Assembly: GCA_021324075.1 (NCBI GenBank)
Contig: JAJPJW010000054.1
Span: forward strand, 500 to 64,499
Length of the DNA: 64,000 bases
Reading direction: 5' to 3'
DNA from: Pseudomonadota bacterium
GTDB taxonomy: Bacteria > Oederibacteriota > Muellerivitia > Muellerivitales > Muellerivitaceae
Shown: positions 32,243-48,393 of the stretch, in pieces
Numbering within the stretch: position 1 is the stretch's first letter
Layout of the letters: each line of letters opens with the position of its first letter
Notes under the pieces: model-generated
Told to the model about the DNA's origin: nothing
Databases searched by the model: none
What the model saw: the letters and a program-made list of their open reading frames with translations, nothing else
Made by a program: the position numbers and the translations under genes

Positions 32243-32289
32243 TTCAATTGAAATTTGGCGTTTAAAAACTATAATTGCTCTCCGAAACG

Positions 32290-32328
32290 GCCCCTTTCCC
32301 AGCCTTGGGACAGGGGCTTTCCTTTTGG
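32290..32328 (+). terminator. Rho-independent terminator of the sugar ABC operon.
   Basis: 'GCCCCTTTCCCAG-CC-TTGGGACAGGGGC' gives a 12-13-bp stem with one mismatch, followed by 'TTTCCTTTTGG'. Confidence 0.6.
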
Positions 32329-32435
32329 CGCCTGTGCCCCGAGGAATTTTACAAAGGTTTTTCGACGCACCGACGCCCTACTTCGCCCACCTGTTTTTGC
32401 CGTGATGTGAGTCCATCCATTCAAGGAGATTTGGA

Positions 32436-33608
<1,173 letters not shown>

Positions 33609-33616
33609 ACATCTTT

Positions 33617-33667
33617 AACCACAGGGTCCGTTTTAAGAAGAACGACGCCCTGTGGTTCAATTTTTTG
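33617..33667 (+). terminator. Terminator hairpin after metK, whose arms resemble the ends of the intergenic repeat family.
   Basis: 'AACCACAGGG' ... 'CCCTGTGGTT' form a 10-bp stem, followed by 'CAATTTTTTG'. The arm sequence is similar to the 'ACCACRGAGT...CCTGTGGTGAAA' repeats at 39241 and 62229. Confidence 0.6.
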
Positions 33668-33678
33668 AGGAGAACTAA

Positions 33679-34935
<1,257 letters not shown>

Positions 34936-35022
34936 GAAATTTAATCGCTGTCATTGCAAGGAATGCCCCGCGAATAGCGGGGCGTTCATGACGAAGCAAC
35001 CTCAGTTTAAATATGTTTTCCA

Positions 35023-35060
35023 AAAGGCGAACCTTTTAGGTTCGCCTTTTTTGTTTTCGC
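35023..35060 (+). terminator. Rho-independent terminator.
   Basis: 'GGCGAACC-TTTTA-GGTTCGCC' followed by 'TTTTTTGTTTT'. Confidence 0.7.
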
Positions 35061-35098
35061 TGATTGTTCTGTATATAAAATGTCTCAGGTGGAAGGAG
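35051..35098 (+). promoter_or_regulatory. Sigma70-like promoter plus RBS for the TIR gene.
   Basis: TTGTTT(35051-56)-N17-TATAAA(35074-79), and a GGAAGGAG RBS at 35091-98 placed 7 nt before the ATG at 35106. Confidence 0.5.
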
Positions 35099-35105
35099 AT
35101 GGCGA

Positions 35106-35888
35106 ATGAAAATATTTATTTCTTATGAACATAATGTGTGGCCATTGGCAAAAGCTATCGCAGAGTGGTTAAAACCAAGTGGTCATGATGTTCAGTGGGA
35201 TTTTGAAAGTCTAAATCCTGGCATGCCATTTAATGAAAAGATAGCTTCTTTAATCGCGGATTCAGACCAAATCATTTACTTGGCAAGCCCAGCTTCTCTA
35301 ACTAGCAAATGGGTATCAGCTGAATTGGCTTATGCTCGGGCTCTGCAAAAGTCTCTTATGCCAATAAAATTAGAAGGGGTTACAAACGAGCAAATTGAGG
35401 CTATGCCTTTTATTGGAAAAGTTCATTTGTTGGATTGGCCGACAGGCCGAAACATTTCAACCGATATACTAAAAGCAATTTCTAATTCGAATTATTCCGA
35501 TTTGATCGAAATAAATGTCGAGAGACAAGCAAACAACGTCTTGAAAATATTTTTTAAAAATAAAGCTCCCATAGATTTTTACGATGTCAAAACGGATATT
35601 TGTGTGGAGTTCGAGGGAAAATTGGAAATAGAATTCTCTCCAGTAATAGAGGAAAGATTTCTCGTCTTGCCGCGGGGGGAAATTTGCTGGGTTCGACGCG
35701 AAGTAAAAGAATTCACTAAAAATATTCGTCTTGAAGGGGACTTCTATTCGGACCGGAACAATATGATAGTTCTTTGTAAATATTGTTTTCAAAATCAGGA
35801 AAGATATTTTTATGTTTCGAAAAGATTTAAGCTCAACCTGTTAGCGCCGGAAAAGACATCGTCGGAGGAAATTGAAAAGGGAAATTGA
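35106..35888 (+). CDS. TIR-domain protein with an uncharacterised ~140-aa C-terminal domain; a candidate antiphage defence gene.
   Basis: 'MKIFISYEHNVWPLAKAIAEWL...QIIYLASPASLTSKWVSAELAYA' has the bacterial TIR layout (FISY...D, a conserved Glu in 'SAEL'). The gene is ~35% GC against ~60% for its neighbours. Confidence 0.7.
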   Translation: MKIFISYEHNVWPLAKAIAEWLKPSGHDVQWDFESLNPGMPFNEKIASLIADSDQIIYLASPASLTSKWVSAELAYARALQKSLMPIKLEGVTNEQIEAMPFIGKVHLLDWPTGRNISTDILKAISNSNYSDLIEINVERQANNVLKIFFKNKAPIDFYDVKTDICVEFEGKLEIEFSPVIEERFLVLPRGEICWVRREVKEFTKNIRLEGDFYSDRNNMIVLCKYCFQNQERYFYVSKRFKLNLLAPEKTSSEEIEKGN

Positions 35889-35895
35889 ACACGTT

Positions 35896-36999
35896 TTAGC
35901 TTGCGGCGACTCTTTGGGCTTCGGCTTTTGCATCCGCCGCTTCTTTTTCCATAAGGGGCTGGAACCGCTTCTTCTCGTTGGCCTTCAGGTAGGCTTGTTC
36001 CGCCGTGATTTTGCCGGCTTCCAAGAATTTCATCAGGCATTGGTCCATGGTCTGCATCCCGACCTTGGCGTTCAGTTCGATCAGGGAATTCAAGCCCGAC
36101 ACCTTGCCGGTGCGGATCAGGTTCGGCAGGCTCTTCTCAAAGCATAGAACCTCCACCGCCGCGCAACGGCCCTTGCCGTCCTTGGTGGGGCAGAGTTGCT
36201 GGGCCACGATGCCCTTGGTGGAGGCGGCCAGGGCGCCCCGGGCCTTGTCCCGCTCGTCGGAAGGGAAAACGTTGATGATGCGGTCGATGGTCTTGGCCGC
36301 CGAGTTGGTATGCAGGGTGCCGAAGACCAGGATGCCCATTTCCGCCGCCGCAATGGCCAGGGAAATGGTTTCATAGTCCCGCATTTCACCCACCAGAATG
36401 ATGTCCGGGTCCTGGCGCATCGAAGAACGCAGGGCCGCCTTGAAAGAATGGGTGTCCCGGTGCACTTCGCGCTGGGTGATCTTGCACTTCTTGACCGGGT
36501 GGACGAACTCGATGGGGTCCTCGATGGTGAGGATGTTGGCCTCACGGTTGGAATTGATCTGGTCGATCATGGCCGCCAGGGTGGTGGATTTGCCGCTTCC
36601 CGTAGGCCCGGTGACCAGGATCAGGCCCCGCTTGACGTTGCACATGGTGCGGATGACCGGCGGCATGCCCAGTTCGTCCAGAGTCAGGATCTTAGTCGGG
36701 ATGGTGCGGAAAACCGCCGCAACGCCCTGCTGGTTGAAGAAGACGTTGGAACGGAACCGGGCCAGGCCGGGCACCTCATAGGCGTAGTCGTAATCATGCC
36801 GCTGCCAGCAAAGCTCCCACTGCTCCGGGGTCATGGTCTCATAAAGAAGAACATGCATGACCTGTTCGGTCATGATCCAGTCTTCCAAGGGCGCCAGGTC
36901 GCCCTTGGTGCGGATGAGGGGCGGGTTACCCACGGTCAAATGAAGGTCCGAGGCCTTGCGTTCCACCATCTTCTTGAAAAGTTCGTCGATGGTCGCCAT
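35896..36999 (-). CDS. pilT: Type IV pilus retraction ATPase PilT.
   Basis: 'ASDLHL', Walker A 'GPTGSGKSTT', 'ILTIEDPIEF', 'REVHRDT', 'DPDIILVGEMRD'. Confidence 0.9.
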   Translation of the reverse strand: MATIDELFKKMVERKASDLHLTVGNPPLIRTKGDLAPLEDWIMTEQVMHVLLYETMTPEQWELCWQRHDYDYAYEVPGLARFRSNVFFNQQGVAAVFRTIPTKILTLDELGMPPVIRTMCNVKRGLILVTGPTGSGKSTTLAAMIDQINSNREANILTIEDPIEFVHPVKKCKITQREVHRDTHSFKAALRSSMRQDPDIILVGEMRDYETISLAIAAAEMGILVFGTLHTNSAAKTIDRIINVFPSDERDKARGALAASTKGIVAQQLCPTKDGKGRCAAVEVLCFEKSLPNLIRTGKVSGLNSLIELNAKVGMQTMDQCLMKFLEAGKITAEQAYLKANEKKRFQPLMEKEAADAKAEAQRVAAS

Positions 37000-40854: not shown

Positions 40855-42549
40855 ATGGCCAAAAACCCCAAAGCCGCCCCGGGCCAAGGACTTGGAACCA
40901 TCCTCTCATGGGCCCTGATGGCGGGCCTGGGGTTCCTGGGAATATGGCAATTCCACAACGTTGAGTTCTATTCCGATTTCGACCTCGTGCCGGGAGGGCG
41001 GGGCGACAACCGGCTGGTGACGGCCCTTCTGGAGTATTTTTACCACGCCCTCCGGGGTGAGGGTTCCTTTTCCTCCCCGGCCTTTTATTACCCCGCCCAG
41101 GGTACCCTGGGGTACGCCGACGTTTTTTTAAGTTATTCCATCCCCTACGGCATCCTGCGGAGCTTCGGGATGGATGTCTTTTCCTGTTACCAGGTTTGCG
41201 GCATCCTCTTCAGCCTTTTGAACTACCTTTGCGGTTTCCTTTTGCTTTACCGGGGATTGGGCCGCGGTGTCACCGCTTCCGCTTTGGGCGCCTTCCTTTT
41301 CGCCTTCAACGCCCCTAAGTTCAACCAGATCAGCCACCCCCAACTCCAATGCCTCTTCCTCCTGCCGCTCGTGGTGTGGTTGGCGGTGGAATGGGTCAAA
41401 CGGGGTTCGAAAATTTCGCCGCGCGAATCCTTCACCTTTCTTTGCGCCGCCGTCCTCGTGGCGGATTTCCAGCTTTATAGCGGCTTTTACATGGGCTGGT
41501 TTTTCTTTTTCTGGGTCCTGCTCTTCTTCATCCTTTCCCTTAGTTTCAAGGCCACCCGGGGTTACCTGTGGGAGATTTGGCAACACCATCAACTTCCCCT
41601 TTTGGGGGCCGGGGTTGTCTTCGTCCTGGGGTTGGTCCCATTCCTATGGATTTACCTGCCGGTCATCCGCGAACTTGGGGGAAAAAGCTACAGCGAAATC
41701 CAAATGATGACCCCGGATGCGTGGTCCTTCCTCTGGATGGGGCCGCGCCACAGCTGGTGGGGTTGGCTATGGGACCATTCCCAGACCATCCGGAATTATC
41801 CGGTGGAGGGTGAAGAGAGGGACGGCTTGGGTTTGTCCGTCCTGGCCGCCTGGTTCCTATTGACCCTGGCGGCGGTTTGGTTTCTAAGGGAAAAGAAGCC
41901 TCCTTTTTCCGATAAAACCAAGGCTGTTTATTACTATTTCGCCGCTGTGGCGGTCCTTGCCACCACCCTCTTTGCCCTTTTAGGTTTTAAATATCCCGGC
42001 GATGTTTCCCCCTGGCGGATCATCTATGAGCTGGTGCCGGGGGGCGGCAGCATCCGGGCCGTTTCCCGGTATGTCCTATTCATCGCCCTGCCTCTCTCTG
42101 TTTTTATTGGGCTCGCTTTTCAAATGCTTTTGGAAAAGGTTAAAACCCTCCGCGAGCCTTTGGGAGGGCGGGTTTTTACGGCACTCTTGTTCCTATGGGG
42201 CGCTGTGATGGTGTTTGAACAGGTCGGGTTGCCGCCTTACCCCGCTTTTTCCAAATCCGTGGACCTGAACCGGTTGGAATACCTGAGCGAAAAATTACCG
42301 GCCCAATGCAACGCCTTTTACGTCGATGTGGATCCCCGGCTGACCTATGACGCCACCAACCTCCAGATCGACGCCATGCTTCTTTCAGCCGTGCGGGGCA
42401 TCCCCACCCTCAACGGCTACAGCGGGGCCAATCCGAAGGATTGGAACCTGTACCGCGTCAGAAGCCCCCGTTATCATGAGTATGTCCAGGATTGGGTCGG
42501 CCAAAACCACATTGGGGGACCTATTTGCGGAGTTTTGATCGACCGGTAA
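40855..42549 (+). CDS. Polytopic integral membrane protein of unknown function, inserted between xylG and xylH.
   Basis: 564 aa with at least 12 hydrophobic segments and a Lys-containing N-terminal tail 'MAKNPKAAP'. Its ATG lies 2 nt after the xylG stop. Confidence 0.5.
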   Translation: MAKNPKAAPGQGLGTILSWALMAGLGFLGIWQFHNVEFYSDFDLVPGGRGDNRLVTALLEYFYHALRGEGSFSSPAFYYPAQGTLGYADVFLSYSIPYGILRSFGMDVFSCYQVCGILFSLLNYLCGFLLLYRGLGRGVTASALGAFLFAFNAPKFNQISHPQLQCLFLLPLVVWLAVEWVKRGSKISPRESFTFLCAAVLVADFQLYSGFYMGWFFFFWVLLFFILSLSFKATRGYLWEIWQHHQLPLLGAGVVFVLGLVPFLWIYLPVIRELGGKSYSEIQMMTPDAWSFLWMGPRHSWWGWLWDHSQTIRNYPVEGEERDGLGLSVLAAWFLLTLAAVWFLREKKPPFSDKTKAVYYYFAAVAVLATTLFALLGFKYPGDVSPWRIIYELVPGGGSIRAVSRYVLFIALPLSVFIGLAFQMLLEKVKTLREPLGGRVFTALLFLWGAVMVFEQVGLPPYPAFSKSVDLNRLEYLSEKLPAQCNAFYVDVDPRLTYDATNLQIDAMLLSAVRGIPTLNGYSGANPKDWNLYRVRSPRYHEYVQDWVGQNHIGGPICGVLIDR

Positions 42550-42566
42550 TTGTTGTTTTTACTTTT

Positions 42567-42982
42567 CCCTCTCCCCATGCGGGAGAGGGTAAGGTGAGGG
42601 GTGATGGCCGATAAGCTACAAGGAAACTTTGCTAGGACTTTACGCCGGAACCAAACGGAAGCTGAAAAAAAGCTTTGGAGATATTTGCGTTCTAGGGAGT
42701 TTCAAGGGGTTAAATTCCGGCGACAACAACCGTTGGGCCATTATGTTGTTGATTTTTGCTCCCTTGAAAAAAGACTTATTGTTGAACTGGATGGCGGTCA
42801 ACACGCTTTGAATCAAGACGAAGACGCCAAACGAACACAATACCTTAAGAAATCTGGTTACAAGGTAATTTGTTTTTGGAATAACGAAGTTTTAGAAAAT
42901 ATTGAAGGCGTTTTGGAAAGAATAAAGCAAAGCTTAGCCTAAACACCCCTCACCCCATCCCTCTCCCGCAAGGGGAGAGGGG
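42567..42982. mobile_element. Miniature cassette: a DUF559 endonuclease-like gene flanked by ~38-bp terminal inverted repeats.
   Basis: Left IR 'CCCTCTCCCCATGCGGGAGAGGGTAAGGTGAGGGGTG' (42567-42603). Right IR 'CACCCCTCACCCCATCCCTCTCCCGCAAGGGGAGAGGG' (42944-42982). They are ~87% reverse-complement identical. Internal GC is ~40%, against ~60% for the flanks. Confidence 0.6.
42604..42942 (+). CDS. DUF559 (Vsr/restriction-endonuclease-like fold) protein.
   Basis: 'EAEKKLWRYLRSREFQGVKFRRQQPLGHYVVDFCSLEKRLIVELDGGQH...D..R...L...GYKVICFWNNEVL' is the DUF559 signature. Confidence 0.75.
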   Translation: MADKLQGNFARTLRRNQTEAEKKLWRYLRSREFQGVKFRRQQPLGHYVVDFCSLEKRLIVELDGGQHALNQDEDAKRTQYLKKSGYKVICFWNNEVLENIEGVLERIKQSLA

Positions 42983-42995
42983 GAAAAGAGAAGCA

Positions 42996-47533: not shown

Positions 47534-47884
47534 TTAAGGTTTTTTGGGGTGGAACTGTTTGAGGAGGCCGTGCAGGCTCTTCTTTTCTTTTTCGGAGAGG
47601 TGTTTCAACATCTCCTTGATCTTCGCGTCGTAAGTGGAGGGTTTTTCCTGGGTTGTGACCGCCGAAGAAGGTATGAAAAGGTCGTAGAAATTAACCCCTA
47701 AAATCCGGGCAAGGTTTTCCAGTGTGGACAAGGGCGCCTGCCGGGTGCCGCGCTCGATGTGGCTCAAAAAACTGGTGGAAATTTCAGCCCGCTCCGCGAG
47801 TTCCTCCAGGGTGAAGCCTTTTTGCTTGCGGGGGCGTTTCAACGCCGAGCCCGCCGTGATGTAGCTGTTGGGGTTCTTGGCCAT
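47534..47884 (-). CDS. XRE-family helix-turn-helix transcriptional regulator.
   Basis: 'FTLEELAERAEISTSFLSHIERGTRQAPLSTLENLARILGV' is the HTH_3 motif. Confidence 0.8.
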   Translation of the reverse strand: MAKNPNSYITAGSALKRPRKQKGFTLEELAERAEISTSFLSHIERGTRQAPLSTLENLARILGVNFYDLFIPSSAVTTQEKPSTYDAKIKEMLKHLSEKEKKSLHGLLKQFHPKKP

Positions 47885-47939
47885 TTCTTCTCCCAGTCAA
47901 ATTCAAAAACACTATCGCAGAACCCTTTTCCCTTAAAAA

Positions 47940-47967
47940 GTGACTATAAGTCAAATATAATTTTGAC
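47940..47967. promoter_or_regulatory. Palindromic candidate operator overlapping a TATAAT box, lying between the divergent XRE gene and the small ORF.
   Basis: 'GTCAAA-TATAAT-TTTGAC' is a perfect 6-bp inverted repeat around TATAAT. It is immediately preceded by 'TGACT-ATA-AGTCA'. Confidence 0.45.
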
Positions 47968-48030
47968 CAAAAGAATAAACAGCTATAAAATTCAGGCAGT
48001 TTTATCTCCGCCTGTGGCGTGGGGTGCAAA

Positions 48031-48393
48031 ATGGTTTGGCGTGGAGAAGTGGAAAAATGGTTTGTTGAACAAGGTTTCCAGACCGAGTGGTTATGGATGG
48101 GCCGCGACAAATTCTTTTTCCTGGCCTGGAAGGGACGGATGCTGGCCGTTCATTTTGTCGAACCGGAAGGCTCAGCGGTACCCGAGAAGCCAATGACCGT
48201 CAAAAAATTGTTCCTCGAGCTTTTCACCCACCTGAGGTACCTGGAAAGCTGGAACAGGGTGTTCAAAGGACGGGAAGTTTCCTTCAAATGGCTTTGTTTC
48301 CGGGTCCTTACCGGTAATGAAATTGAAAGGCTGAAGATAGCCGGGGTGGAACCCTTTCATTTCGAGCCTTACACCGGCTATTCTTCCAACTAG
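48031..48393 (+). CDS. Hypothetical small protein, divergent from the XRE regulator.
   Basis: ORF with an ATG at 48031 (a GTG is possible at 48019). No recognisable domain. GC is intermediate. Confidence 0.35.
   Translation: MVWRGEVEKWFVEQGFQTEWLWMGRDKFFFLAWKGRMLAVHFVEPEGSAVPEKPMTVKKLFLELFTHLRYLESWNRVFKGREVSFKWLCFRVLTGNEIERLKIAGVEPFHFEPYTGYSSN

Follow-up and report, generated by a model that had tools for sequence, protein, structure and literature searches.

The 64-kb stretch of DNA analyzed here (the window) derives from an uncultured soil bacterium, which is placed in the candidate phylum FCPU426 by its AhcY protein, 84–89% identical to those of three metagenome-assembled genomes. FCPU426 is a phylum for which we know of neither cultured members nor phages. 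Between ahcY (33679–34935, plus strand) and the convergent pilT (35896–36999, minus strand) lies a gap of 960 bp, and the sole open reading frame (ORF) in this gap (35106–35888, plus strand) encodes a protein of 260 amino acids, which joins an N-terminal TIR domain to an orphan C-terminal domain. A preliminary description of the locus had read it as a low-GC insertion of a single gene and as a candidate defense island. The single gene between ahcY and pilT is indeed there. The low GC is also real, although the figure first given, about 35%, was slightly low: GC is 38.2% across 34936–35895 and 37.2% in the TIR gene, against a window mean of 57.6%. At third codon positions (GC3), the difference is larger still (0.34 in the TIR gene versus 0.85 in ahcY), and no other gene-sized stretch of the 64 kb has a GC as low as that of the TIR gene (z = -6.7). 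Its neighbors are housekeeping genes, namely metK, ahcY, pilT, and those of a sugar ABC transporter, in the order metK-ahcY-TIR-pilT-pilT-BP-ABC. The window holds no tRNA and no integrase or transposase, and no direct or inverted repeats flank the cassette.

The TIR domain

The N-terminal half of the protein (residues 1–128; 35106–35489, plus strand) matches Pfam TIR_2 (PF13676, STIR clan) over residues 3–110 with E = 3.3e-17 and 63.6 bits, against a cut-off of 28 bits, which bears out the TIR domain of the preliminary description. Weaker Pfam matches were obtained to TIR and to ThsB_TIR, the latter over residues 42–92 only (25.2 bits, cut-off of 21.2). Among defense profiles, those of the ThsB type gave the best matches, namely ThsB1 (PDLC00434) in PADLOC, with E = 1.7e-11, and the Thoeris type III protein ThcB4 in NCBIfam, with E = 3.7e-12 and 45.8 bits, which is below the equivalog cut-off of 220 bits. 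The PADLOC matches to Aga_TIR (residues 2–84) and SAVED_TIR (residues 2–75) cover the TIR part only.

The residues associated with catalysis in TIR enzymes are in place. Profile alignment to SARM1 sets D32, E34, G39, W69, and E73 opposite D594, E596, G601, W638, and E642, with SARM1 numbered by our own count along its known sequence. The glutamate of the SAEL segment, singled out earlier for comparison with catalytic glutamates of other TIRs, thus stands at the catalytic position. E73 lies on helix alphaC in the segment W69-V-S-A-E73, with the conserved tryptophan four residues earlier, as in enzymatic TIRs, and both the BB-loop Asp...Gly (D32...G39) and the N-terminal strand F4-I5-S6-Y7, which lines the NAD+ pocket, are present. 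Neither the family nor its two nearest outside TIRs, P0008 and P0009, shows any change at F4, D32, G39, W69, or E73. In the full-length AlphaFold model, the TIR part has a pLDDT of ~75, and Foldseek retrieves with it the TIRs of SARM1, SPARTA, AbTir, and TIR-STING. The pair F4/E73 also mirrors the catalytic pair of Staphylococcus aureus ThsB2, F6/E81 (PMC12578639). Judged by these residues and alignments, the TIR domain appears to be enzymatically competent.

The C-terminal domain

The remainder of the protein (residues 129–260, stop included; 35490–35888, plus strand) has no match in Pfam, NCBIfam, PADLOC, PHROGs, or the sequences of the PDB, in keeping with the earlier statement that these ~130 residues belong to no recognizable family. 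It is only 31–51% identical between the lineages described below. When 1.84 billion representative proteins were searched exhaustively with an HMMER profile of the domain, the matches were its own family, a remnant of 81 amino acids (P0005), and a repeat protein (P0004). We judge the last of these to be spurious, its match being confined to a short DFYD-type stretch that is repeated six times. P0005 is a stand-alone ORF that keeps the terminal motif LVLCKFSFQNQDKYF and aligns to the family with an hhalign probability of 97%. On its two contigs (L086, 200–445; L087, 299–544), it is AT-rich and retains the strand at the N terminus as well as the terminal hairpin motif, without the variable middle and without a TIR domain; these contigs are only 553–677 nt long, too short to give host or context.

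Structure prediction suggests an eight-stranded Ig-like beta-sandwich. The full-length AlphaFold model is poor in its C-terminal half (pLDDT 30–60), and modeling the domain by itself reproducibly gives an all-beta structure of seven to eight strands (pLDDT 69, pTM 0.61). Foldseek against the PDB finds generic Ig-like sandwiches only, with a best E of 5e-3 and TM scores of at most 0.44, and against viral structures (BFVD), it likewise finds nothing more specific than generic beta-sandwiches. The part modeled with the highest confidence is the last beta-hairpin, which carries the invariant motif LCK[YF]CFQNQERYFY (LCKYCFQNQERYFY; 35772–35813, plus strand). Between lineages this motif has accumulated many synonymous changes and essentially no amino acid changes, and it is retained in P0005. 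A zinc site formed by its CxxC is unsupported, as only two cysteines are conserved and the remnant P0005 has Cys-x-x-Ser.

Distribution and divergence of the TIR gene

Across 5.8 billion protein clusters, the full-length family comprises three lineages. The first is the window sequence, which is found also on the metagenome contigs L001 and L002; the second is P0002, on contig L004, with 60% identity; and the third is P0003/P0006, on L003 and L088–L091, with about 50% identity. The 185,579 species-representative genomes searched contain no relative, and a metagenome scan returned only the contig L003, already in the family. The gene order around these copies varies. In L004, the TIR gene and pilT are adjacent and convergent, as in the window, and L088 and L003 have the order metK-ahcY-cNMP_binding-TIR-BP-ABC. 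In L006, a related FCPU426 genome, the order is metK-ahcY-spacer-pilT-pilT-BP, with a spacer of 396 bp and the TIR gene absent, and in L007 ahcY is joined straight to an orthologue of the window gene at 40855–42549. Because the site is empty in L006, the TIR gene is accessory, and it occupies a rearrangement-prone slot downstream of ahcY. The L006 spacer was also considered as a decayed TIR gene and rejected, since it contains no significant protein-level remnant. One contig of the first lineage, the Logan contig L002, matches window positions 34728–36536 exactly, TIR gene included, and then changes (L002 1810–2407) to a pilT that is only ~71% identical at the protein level; this switch reflects either strain mixing or recombination inside pilT or a chimeric assembly.

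The two halves of the protein have evolved very differently. In the TIR half, silent sites are saturated between lineages (the proportion of differing synonymous sites, pS, is ~0.74), and dN/dS is 0.04–0.10. In the C-terminal half, the corresponding proportion for nonsynonymous sites, pN, reaches 0.39–0.49. The TIR half is under strong purifying selection. From this pattern we conclude that the gene is functional, one half of it a conserved enzyme and the other evolving fast.

A comparison of the window with L004 sets the gene apart from its surroundings. The flanks are 85–95% identical, and pS is 0.43 in pilT (dS of 0.63) and 0.74–0.85 in the TIR gene, with sharp breaks in identity near 35050 and 35900. 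The TIR alleles are thus much older than their flanks, which points to allele exchange or to a long-maintained polymorphism at one locus. GC3 is 0.29–0.43 in every TIR allele, compared with 0.72–0.86 in the flanks. Because GC3 stays low in all alleles, the AT-richness is not the mark of a recent transfer that is still drifting toward host composition. The insertion of the preliminary description, if understood as a recent event, does not fit alleles that are saturated at silent sites among three lineages; the gene is better described as a cassette that is old and hypervariable, in a locus that is conserved.

Genomic context

Annotation of the window with Pfam and PADLOC gave glycosyltransferases, methyltransferases, a GH3 glycosidase, ABC transporters, envelope proteins, a helix-turn-helix (HTH) protein, CTP synthase, and several ORFs without a family. 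Neither resource found a SIR2, SLOG, Macro, ThsA, Argonaute, cyclase, or caspase-like domain in the 64 kb, so that the lack of a nearby ThsA, Argonaute, or cyclase partner, as first reported, holds for the whole window. No Thoeris effector adjoins the TIR gene in L004 or L088 either. The gene is a solitary unit: across the three lineages, whose neighbors differ, only the promoter and the gene itself are conserved. The nearest outside TIRs, P0008 and P0009 (36–41% identity over 74% of the TIR half), also stand alone, among metabolic genes.

In one lineage, a protein of 144 amino acids that binds cyclic nucleotide monophosphates (cNMPs) is encoded directly upstream of the TIR gene (L088, 3552–3986; also L003, 1–288, and L091, 58–492). 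It matches Pfam with E = 2.6e-19 and the cNMP part of the PADLOC PycTIR models with E = 1.7e-13. As a partner of the TIR protein it was rejected, being lineage-specific, of host-like GC, in a separate transcription unit, and absent from the window; the PycTIR match is probably generic, and the adjacency is probably coincidental. Nor does the slot downstream of ahcY qualify as a defense hotspot. It is variable, but its other occupants (in L007 and L088) match no PADLOC defense family, and the one of 570 amino acids in L007 is no more than an orthologue of the membrane protein encoded at 40855–42549 of the window.

That window gene is a multi-pass membrane ORF of 564 amino acids without a Pfam or PADLOC family, located between the ATPase and the permease of a sugar ABC operon. 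This ORF was not inserted there: L006 has it at the same position, its orthologue after ahcY in L007 is 45% identical, and it is absent from that position in L088 and L003. Between this gene and the ABC permease lies a second low-GC islet (42566–42985; GC of 0.43), with a gene for a 113-amino acid DUF559 protein (Vsr-like endonuclease; 42601–42942; Pfam E = 1.2e-44). Hairpin repeats enclose the islet on both sides: the left one is CCCTCTCCCCATGCGGGAGAGGGTAAGGTGAGGGG, and the right one is related to it but inverted. A core of 14–15 nt of this repeat occurs also in the empty-site spacer of L006. In the region 47534–48300, a small HTH gene of the Cro/C1 type (47534–47884, minus strand) adjoins the spot that ranks third in the window for low GC (~47901; GC of 0.455). 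At its gathering thresholds, Rfam finds no RNA family in the 64 kb, and there is no SAM or SAH riboswitch upstream of metK (32250–32435) or ahcY (33609–33678).

Regulatory elements and junctions

Two hairpins follow ahcY. The first, GC-rich hairpin (34961–34987, plus strand; GAAUGCCCCGCG-AAUAG-CGGGGCGUUC, with the stem GCCCCGC/GCGGGGC) lies between the ahcY stop codon and the second, is common to the window and L004, and is absent in the empty-site genome L006. The second (35022–35050) resembles a terminator, with a stem of 13 bp preceded by an A-run and followed by a T-run, which gives it a bidirectional shape, and it forms the left boundary of the variable cassette. The region folds with z = -6, and identity to L004 is here still 82–90%. 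The same stem is found in L004 and L088, and a similar hairpin occupies the equivalent position after ahcY in L006. Because it is upstream of the TIR gene and directly behind ahcY, and because the empty-site genome has a similar one, this hairpin is the terminator of ahcY or a boundary element. The preliminary description had counted it as the island's own terminator; the structure is real, but it stands 5' of the gene, and a fold scan found no terminator-like structure 3' of the TIR gene in the window.

The left junction is otherwise well preserved, with the hairpin, both promoter hexamers, and the ribosome-binding site kept in all three carrier lineages. The promoter-like sequence TTGTTT-N17-TATAAA (35051–35079, plus strand) is present as had been described, but near-consensus is too strong a term for it: it has 8 of 12 matches to the sigma-70 consensus, with 3 of 6 in the -35 box, and a promoter scan did not call it. 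Its hexamers are both kept in the window, L004, and L088, and the spacer between them has diverged. The ribosome-binding site noted earlier was found as a Shine-Dalgarno AAGGAG (35093–35098, plus strand) 7 nt 5' of the ATG, with purine-rich equivalents in L004 and L088.

At the right junction (35867–35895), the direct repeat GGAAATTGAA occurs twice, at 35867 and 35880, and 7 nt separate the stop codons of the TIR gene and pilT. A strong bidirectional terminator, in relatives common to pilT and the TIR gene, stands beside the pilT stop codon in L004 (930–975) and L006 (6865–6905) and is deleted in the window, where the TIR ORF carries a window-specific C-terminal extension of ~15 amino acids that ends 7 nt from the pilT stop codon. 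With the terminator gone and the two genes this close, read-through from pilT would therefore be antisense to the TIR gene, up to the hairpin at 35022–35050. An antisense ORF of 107 amino acids within the gene (35469–35792), with a promoter-like match on the minus strand (35792–35763), was rejected, as its frame and length are not kept in L004 and L088.

Discussion

We tentatively favor, with slightly less than even confidence, the view that this gene encodes a stand-alone cytoplasmic sensor-effector, in which a small Ig-like beta-sandwich that evolves fast would act as the sensor for the apparently competent N-terminal TIR to which it is fused. Such a protein would be of the same kind as SpbK or the Escherichia coli proteins TIR-V/VI/IX. 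We prefer it to an orphan ThsB because no partner is conserved in the three lineages and because the nearest outside TIRs also stand alone. In an uninfected cell, the protein would be monomeric or dimeric and inactive. Upon infection, the beta-sandwich might bind a multimeric component of the invader, most plausibly a phage structural protein, and this binding would cluster the TIR domains. Head-to-tail contacts between TIRs through the BB loop could then build a composite active site, in which E73 would cleave NAD+ to nicotinamide and ADP-ribose (ADPR), a cyclic ADPR (cADPR) isomer, or both, and the cell would be arrested before the phage completes its cycle. An active site built in this manner is established for SpbK and assumed for the E. 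coli systems that consist of one TIR protein (PMC12847820, PMC11350192). In the scheme proposed here, the NADase activity, its trigger, oligomerization, and the antiviral role are all elements that we infer.

Several known systems resemble parts of this picture. First, SpbK, an abortive-infection protein encoded by a single gene of the Bacillus subtilis element ICEBs1, is a TIR NADase; in its published mechanism, the other domain docks on the portal YonE, a multimeric protein of the phage, and thereby clusters the TIRs into an active site (PMC12847820). The two proteins share a length of about 260 residues, a two-domain architecture of TIR NADase plus a small non-TIR domain, and the lack of an operon partner. 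The analogy is not exact, as the order of the domains is reversed, with an N-terminal four-helix bundle and a C-terminal TIR in SpbK, whose sensor is thus helical, in contrast to the predicted beta-sandwich here. SpbK is also carried by an integrative conjugative element, whereas the present gene lacks the hallmarks of a mobile element, and no chain named SpbK appears among the PDB sequence matches of the TIR protein. Second, the phage defense activity of TIR-V/VI/IX of E. coli depends on TIR active-site residues (PMC11350192). These enterobacterial proteins are likewise short and stand-alone, with neither a partner gene nor a recognizable second domain, whereas the protein here has a distinct orphan domain of 130 residues and belongs to an uncultured phylum; the likeness is drawn from their description. 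Stand-alone single-gene TIR defense proteins are a functional class and not a homologous family.

Third, the ThsB proteins of Thoeris sense phage capsid proteins directly (PMC12578639), and they share with the present protein an N-terminal TIR with the Phe/Glu pair and provide its best defense-profile matches; they differ in that no effector adjoins the gene here in any lineage, the score falls far below the NCBIfam equivalog cut-off, and the gene is solitary. Fourth, the uncharacterized proteins P0008 and P0009 (TIR-SH3_15) also join an N-terminal TIR to a short beta-rich C-terminal domain, but that domain is unrelated (SH3_15 in P0008), about 50 residues shorter, and without the LCKYCFQNQERYFY motif. 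Fifth, the TIR-APAZ proteins of SPARTA, the top Foldseek matches of the full-length model, have an N-terminal TIR followed by a non-TIR region. Their match covers only the TIR, however, because the root-mean-square deviation outside it is 17–30 Å, and their chains of 371–450 residues contain a far larger APAZ region and work with a short Argonaute, as opposed to a 130-residue all-beta domain and a window without Argonaute. Finally, PycTIR of Pycsar fuses a cNMP domain to the TIR and is paired with a pyrimidine cyclase, and the TIR-SAVED and TIR-STING proteins of CBASS combine a SAVED or STING sensor with a CD-NTase. The present protein has no cNMP domain in Pfam and no PycTIR match, its SAVED_TIR match is confined to the TIR, and the window encodes no cyclase.

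A number of points weigh against a stand-alone antiphage sensor-effector. No known defense gene lies near any homologue (the window, L001–L004, and L088–L091), all of whose neighbors are housekeeping or unannotated. The locus is thus one gene among housekeeping genes and not the defense island of the preliminary description, and homologues are, as far as the data go, never found in a defense-island context, a pattern that the description itself had named as grounds for refutation. All of these homologues share one locus, however, and the lack of defense neighbors therefore removes support for a role in defense without disproving it. Because every known member of the family, in all three lineages, comes from a single locus of one candidate phylum, the evidence from context amounts effectively to n = 1. 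Viral contigs and phage records contain no relative, and matches on plasmids are to the TIR only, at 23–35% identity. The model of the C-terminal domain is only moderate in quality, and its fold match is generic, as the pLDDT, E, and TM values above indicate. We assign a sensor role to the beta-sandwich because the C-terminal half evolves fast, and that role thus rests on evolutionary rate. Finally, the gene has an unusual base composition, which could exaggerate the contrast in silent-site divergence between it and its flanks, yet the observed pS is at least as high as the random expectation.

These same features could, in principle, be explained in other ways. The protein might be an orphan signal generator of the ThsB type, in which an infection-sensing TIR makes a cADPR-type or other ADPR-derived signal for a ThsA or another Thoeris-type effector encoded elsewhere. 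The ThsB1, ThcB4, and ThsB_TIR matches and the N-terminal TIR with its F/E pair, as in ThsB2, are all in its favor, and the authors of the SpbK study raised the same point of a distant receptor, noting that any receptor for the N1-cADPR product of that enzyme would need a gene at some other place in the genome (PMC12847820). Nevertheless, we regard this explanation as unlikely. The 45.8-bit NCBIfam score is far from equivalog level, an effector is absent from the 64 kb and is not adjacent in L004 or L088, and the cassette that travels consists of this gene alone, with a promoter of its own. Moreover, the described Thoeris types are delineated by a TIR gene and an adjacent effector gene in one operon, and that set left out TIRs that stand alone (10.64898/2025.12.03.692087).

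Equally improbable in our estimation is a role outside antiviral defense, in which an active or scaffolding TIR protein would serve NAD+-linked regulation, an addiction or intragenomic-conflict module, or an interbacterial function, with the beta-sandwich binding a ligand of the host. In its favor, the gene is always set among housekeeping genes and never near defense genes, the Ig-like fold is generic, and antiphage activity was found in only 37.5% of the E. coli TIR systems tested (PMC11350192). But a gene that is present in some genomes and absent from others, with alleles that diverge extremely between conserved flanks and a non-catalytic domain that evolves fast, is typical of genetic conflict and not of housekeeping regulators. 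Also against this explanation are the lack of a signal peptide (the N terminus is the first TIR beta-strand), of a secretion-associated neighbor, and of a conserved adjacent small ORF resembling an antitoxin.

Two further possibilities seem very improbable to us. In a split Pycsar-like arrangement, a separate cNMP-binding protein would sense a cyclic nucleotide and activate the TIR protein, as the gene directly upstream in L088 and L003, with its match to the cNMP part of PycTIR, might suggest; yet that gene has host-like GC, and a promoter and a terminator hairpin stand between it and the TIR gene; the window lacks it and has ahcY directly upstream, and the sequence upstream of the TIR gene in L004 matches the same ahcY-downstream spacer; the window has no pyrimidine cyclase, the PycTIR match is one of generic cNMP-domain similarity, and the window TIR protein itself hits no PycTIR model. 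That the gene is a non-functional relic of horizontally acquired DNA, as its low GC, tiny family, truncated 81-residue relative, and lost downstream terminator in the window could be taken to mean, is contradicted by intact ORFs in three lineages despite saturated silent sites, the low dN/dS of the TIR half, a hairpin motif with synonymous changes only, and conserved promoter hexamers and ribosome-binding site.

Systematic surveys of Thoeris and TIR systems usually leave out stand-alone TIRs, and only for very few of these, SpbK above all, is it known how infection is sensed. Single-gene TIR defense proteins are already known; what is new here is the putative sensor domain and the phylum. The practical impact is modest, since there are many uncharacterized TIR fusions and the mechanism predicted for this one follows an established paradigm. 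The value of the system lies in its compactness, as a two-domain protein of 260 amino acids whose catalytic half is conserved and whose putative sensor half has no relatives, and in the clean natural experiment provided by an empty site, three divergent alleles, and one remnant. Its most unusual feature is the deep divergence of alleles that stay AT-rich at a conserved locus; that so low a GC3 persists through saturated divergence in a GC-rich genome is an evolutionary puzzle of independent interest.

If the stand-alone sensor-effector is active, its C-terminal domain would be a new sensor module for TIR immunity. A more far-reaching version of this reading, possible but doubtful in our view, is that the gene encodes an ancient, balanced-polymorphic, one-gene innate immune receptor restricted to FCPU426. 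Its Ig-like domain, anchored by the LCK[YF]CFQNQERYFY hairpin, would directly recognize a phage structural protein, and its AT-richness (GC3 of ~0.3 versus ~0.8 for the genome) would be actively maintained, for example through a need for low expression of a toxic NADase or through xenogeneic silencing. If this were true, TIR immunity would have gained a new sensor fold, and the base composition of the gene would be held by selection and would not stem from recent transfer.

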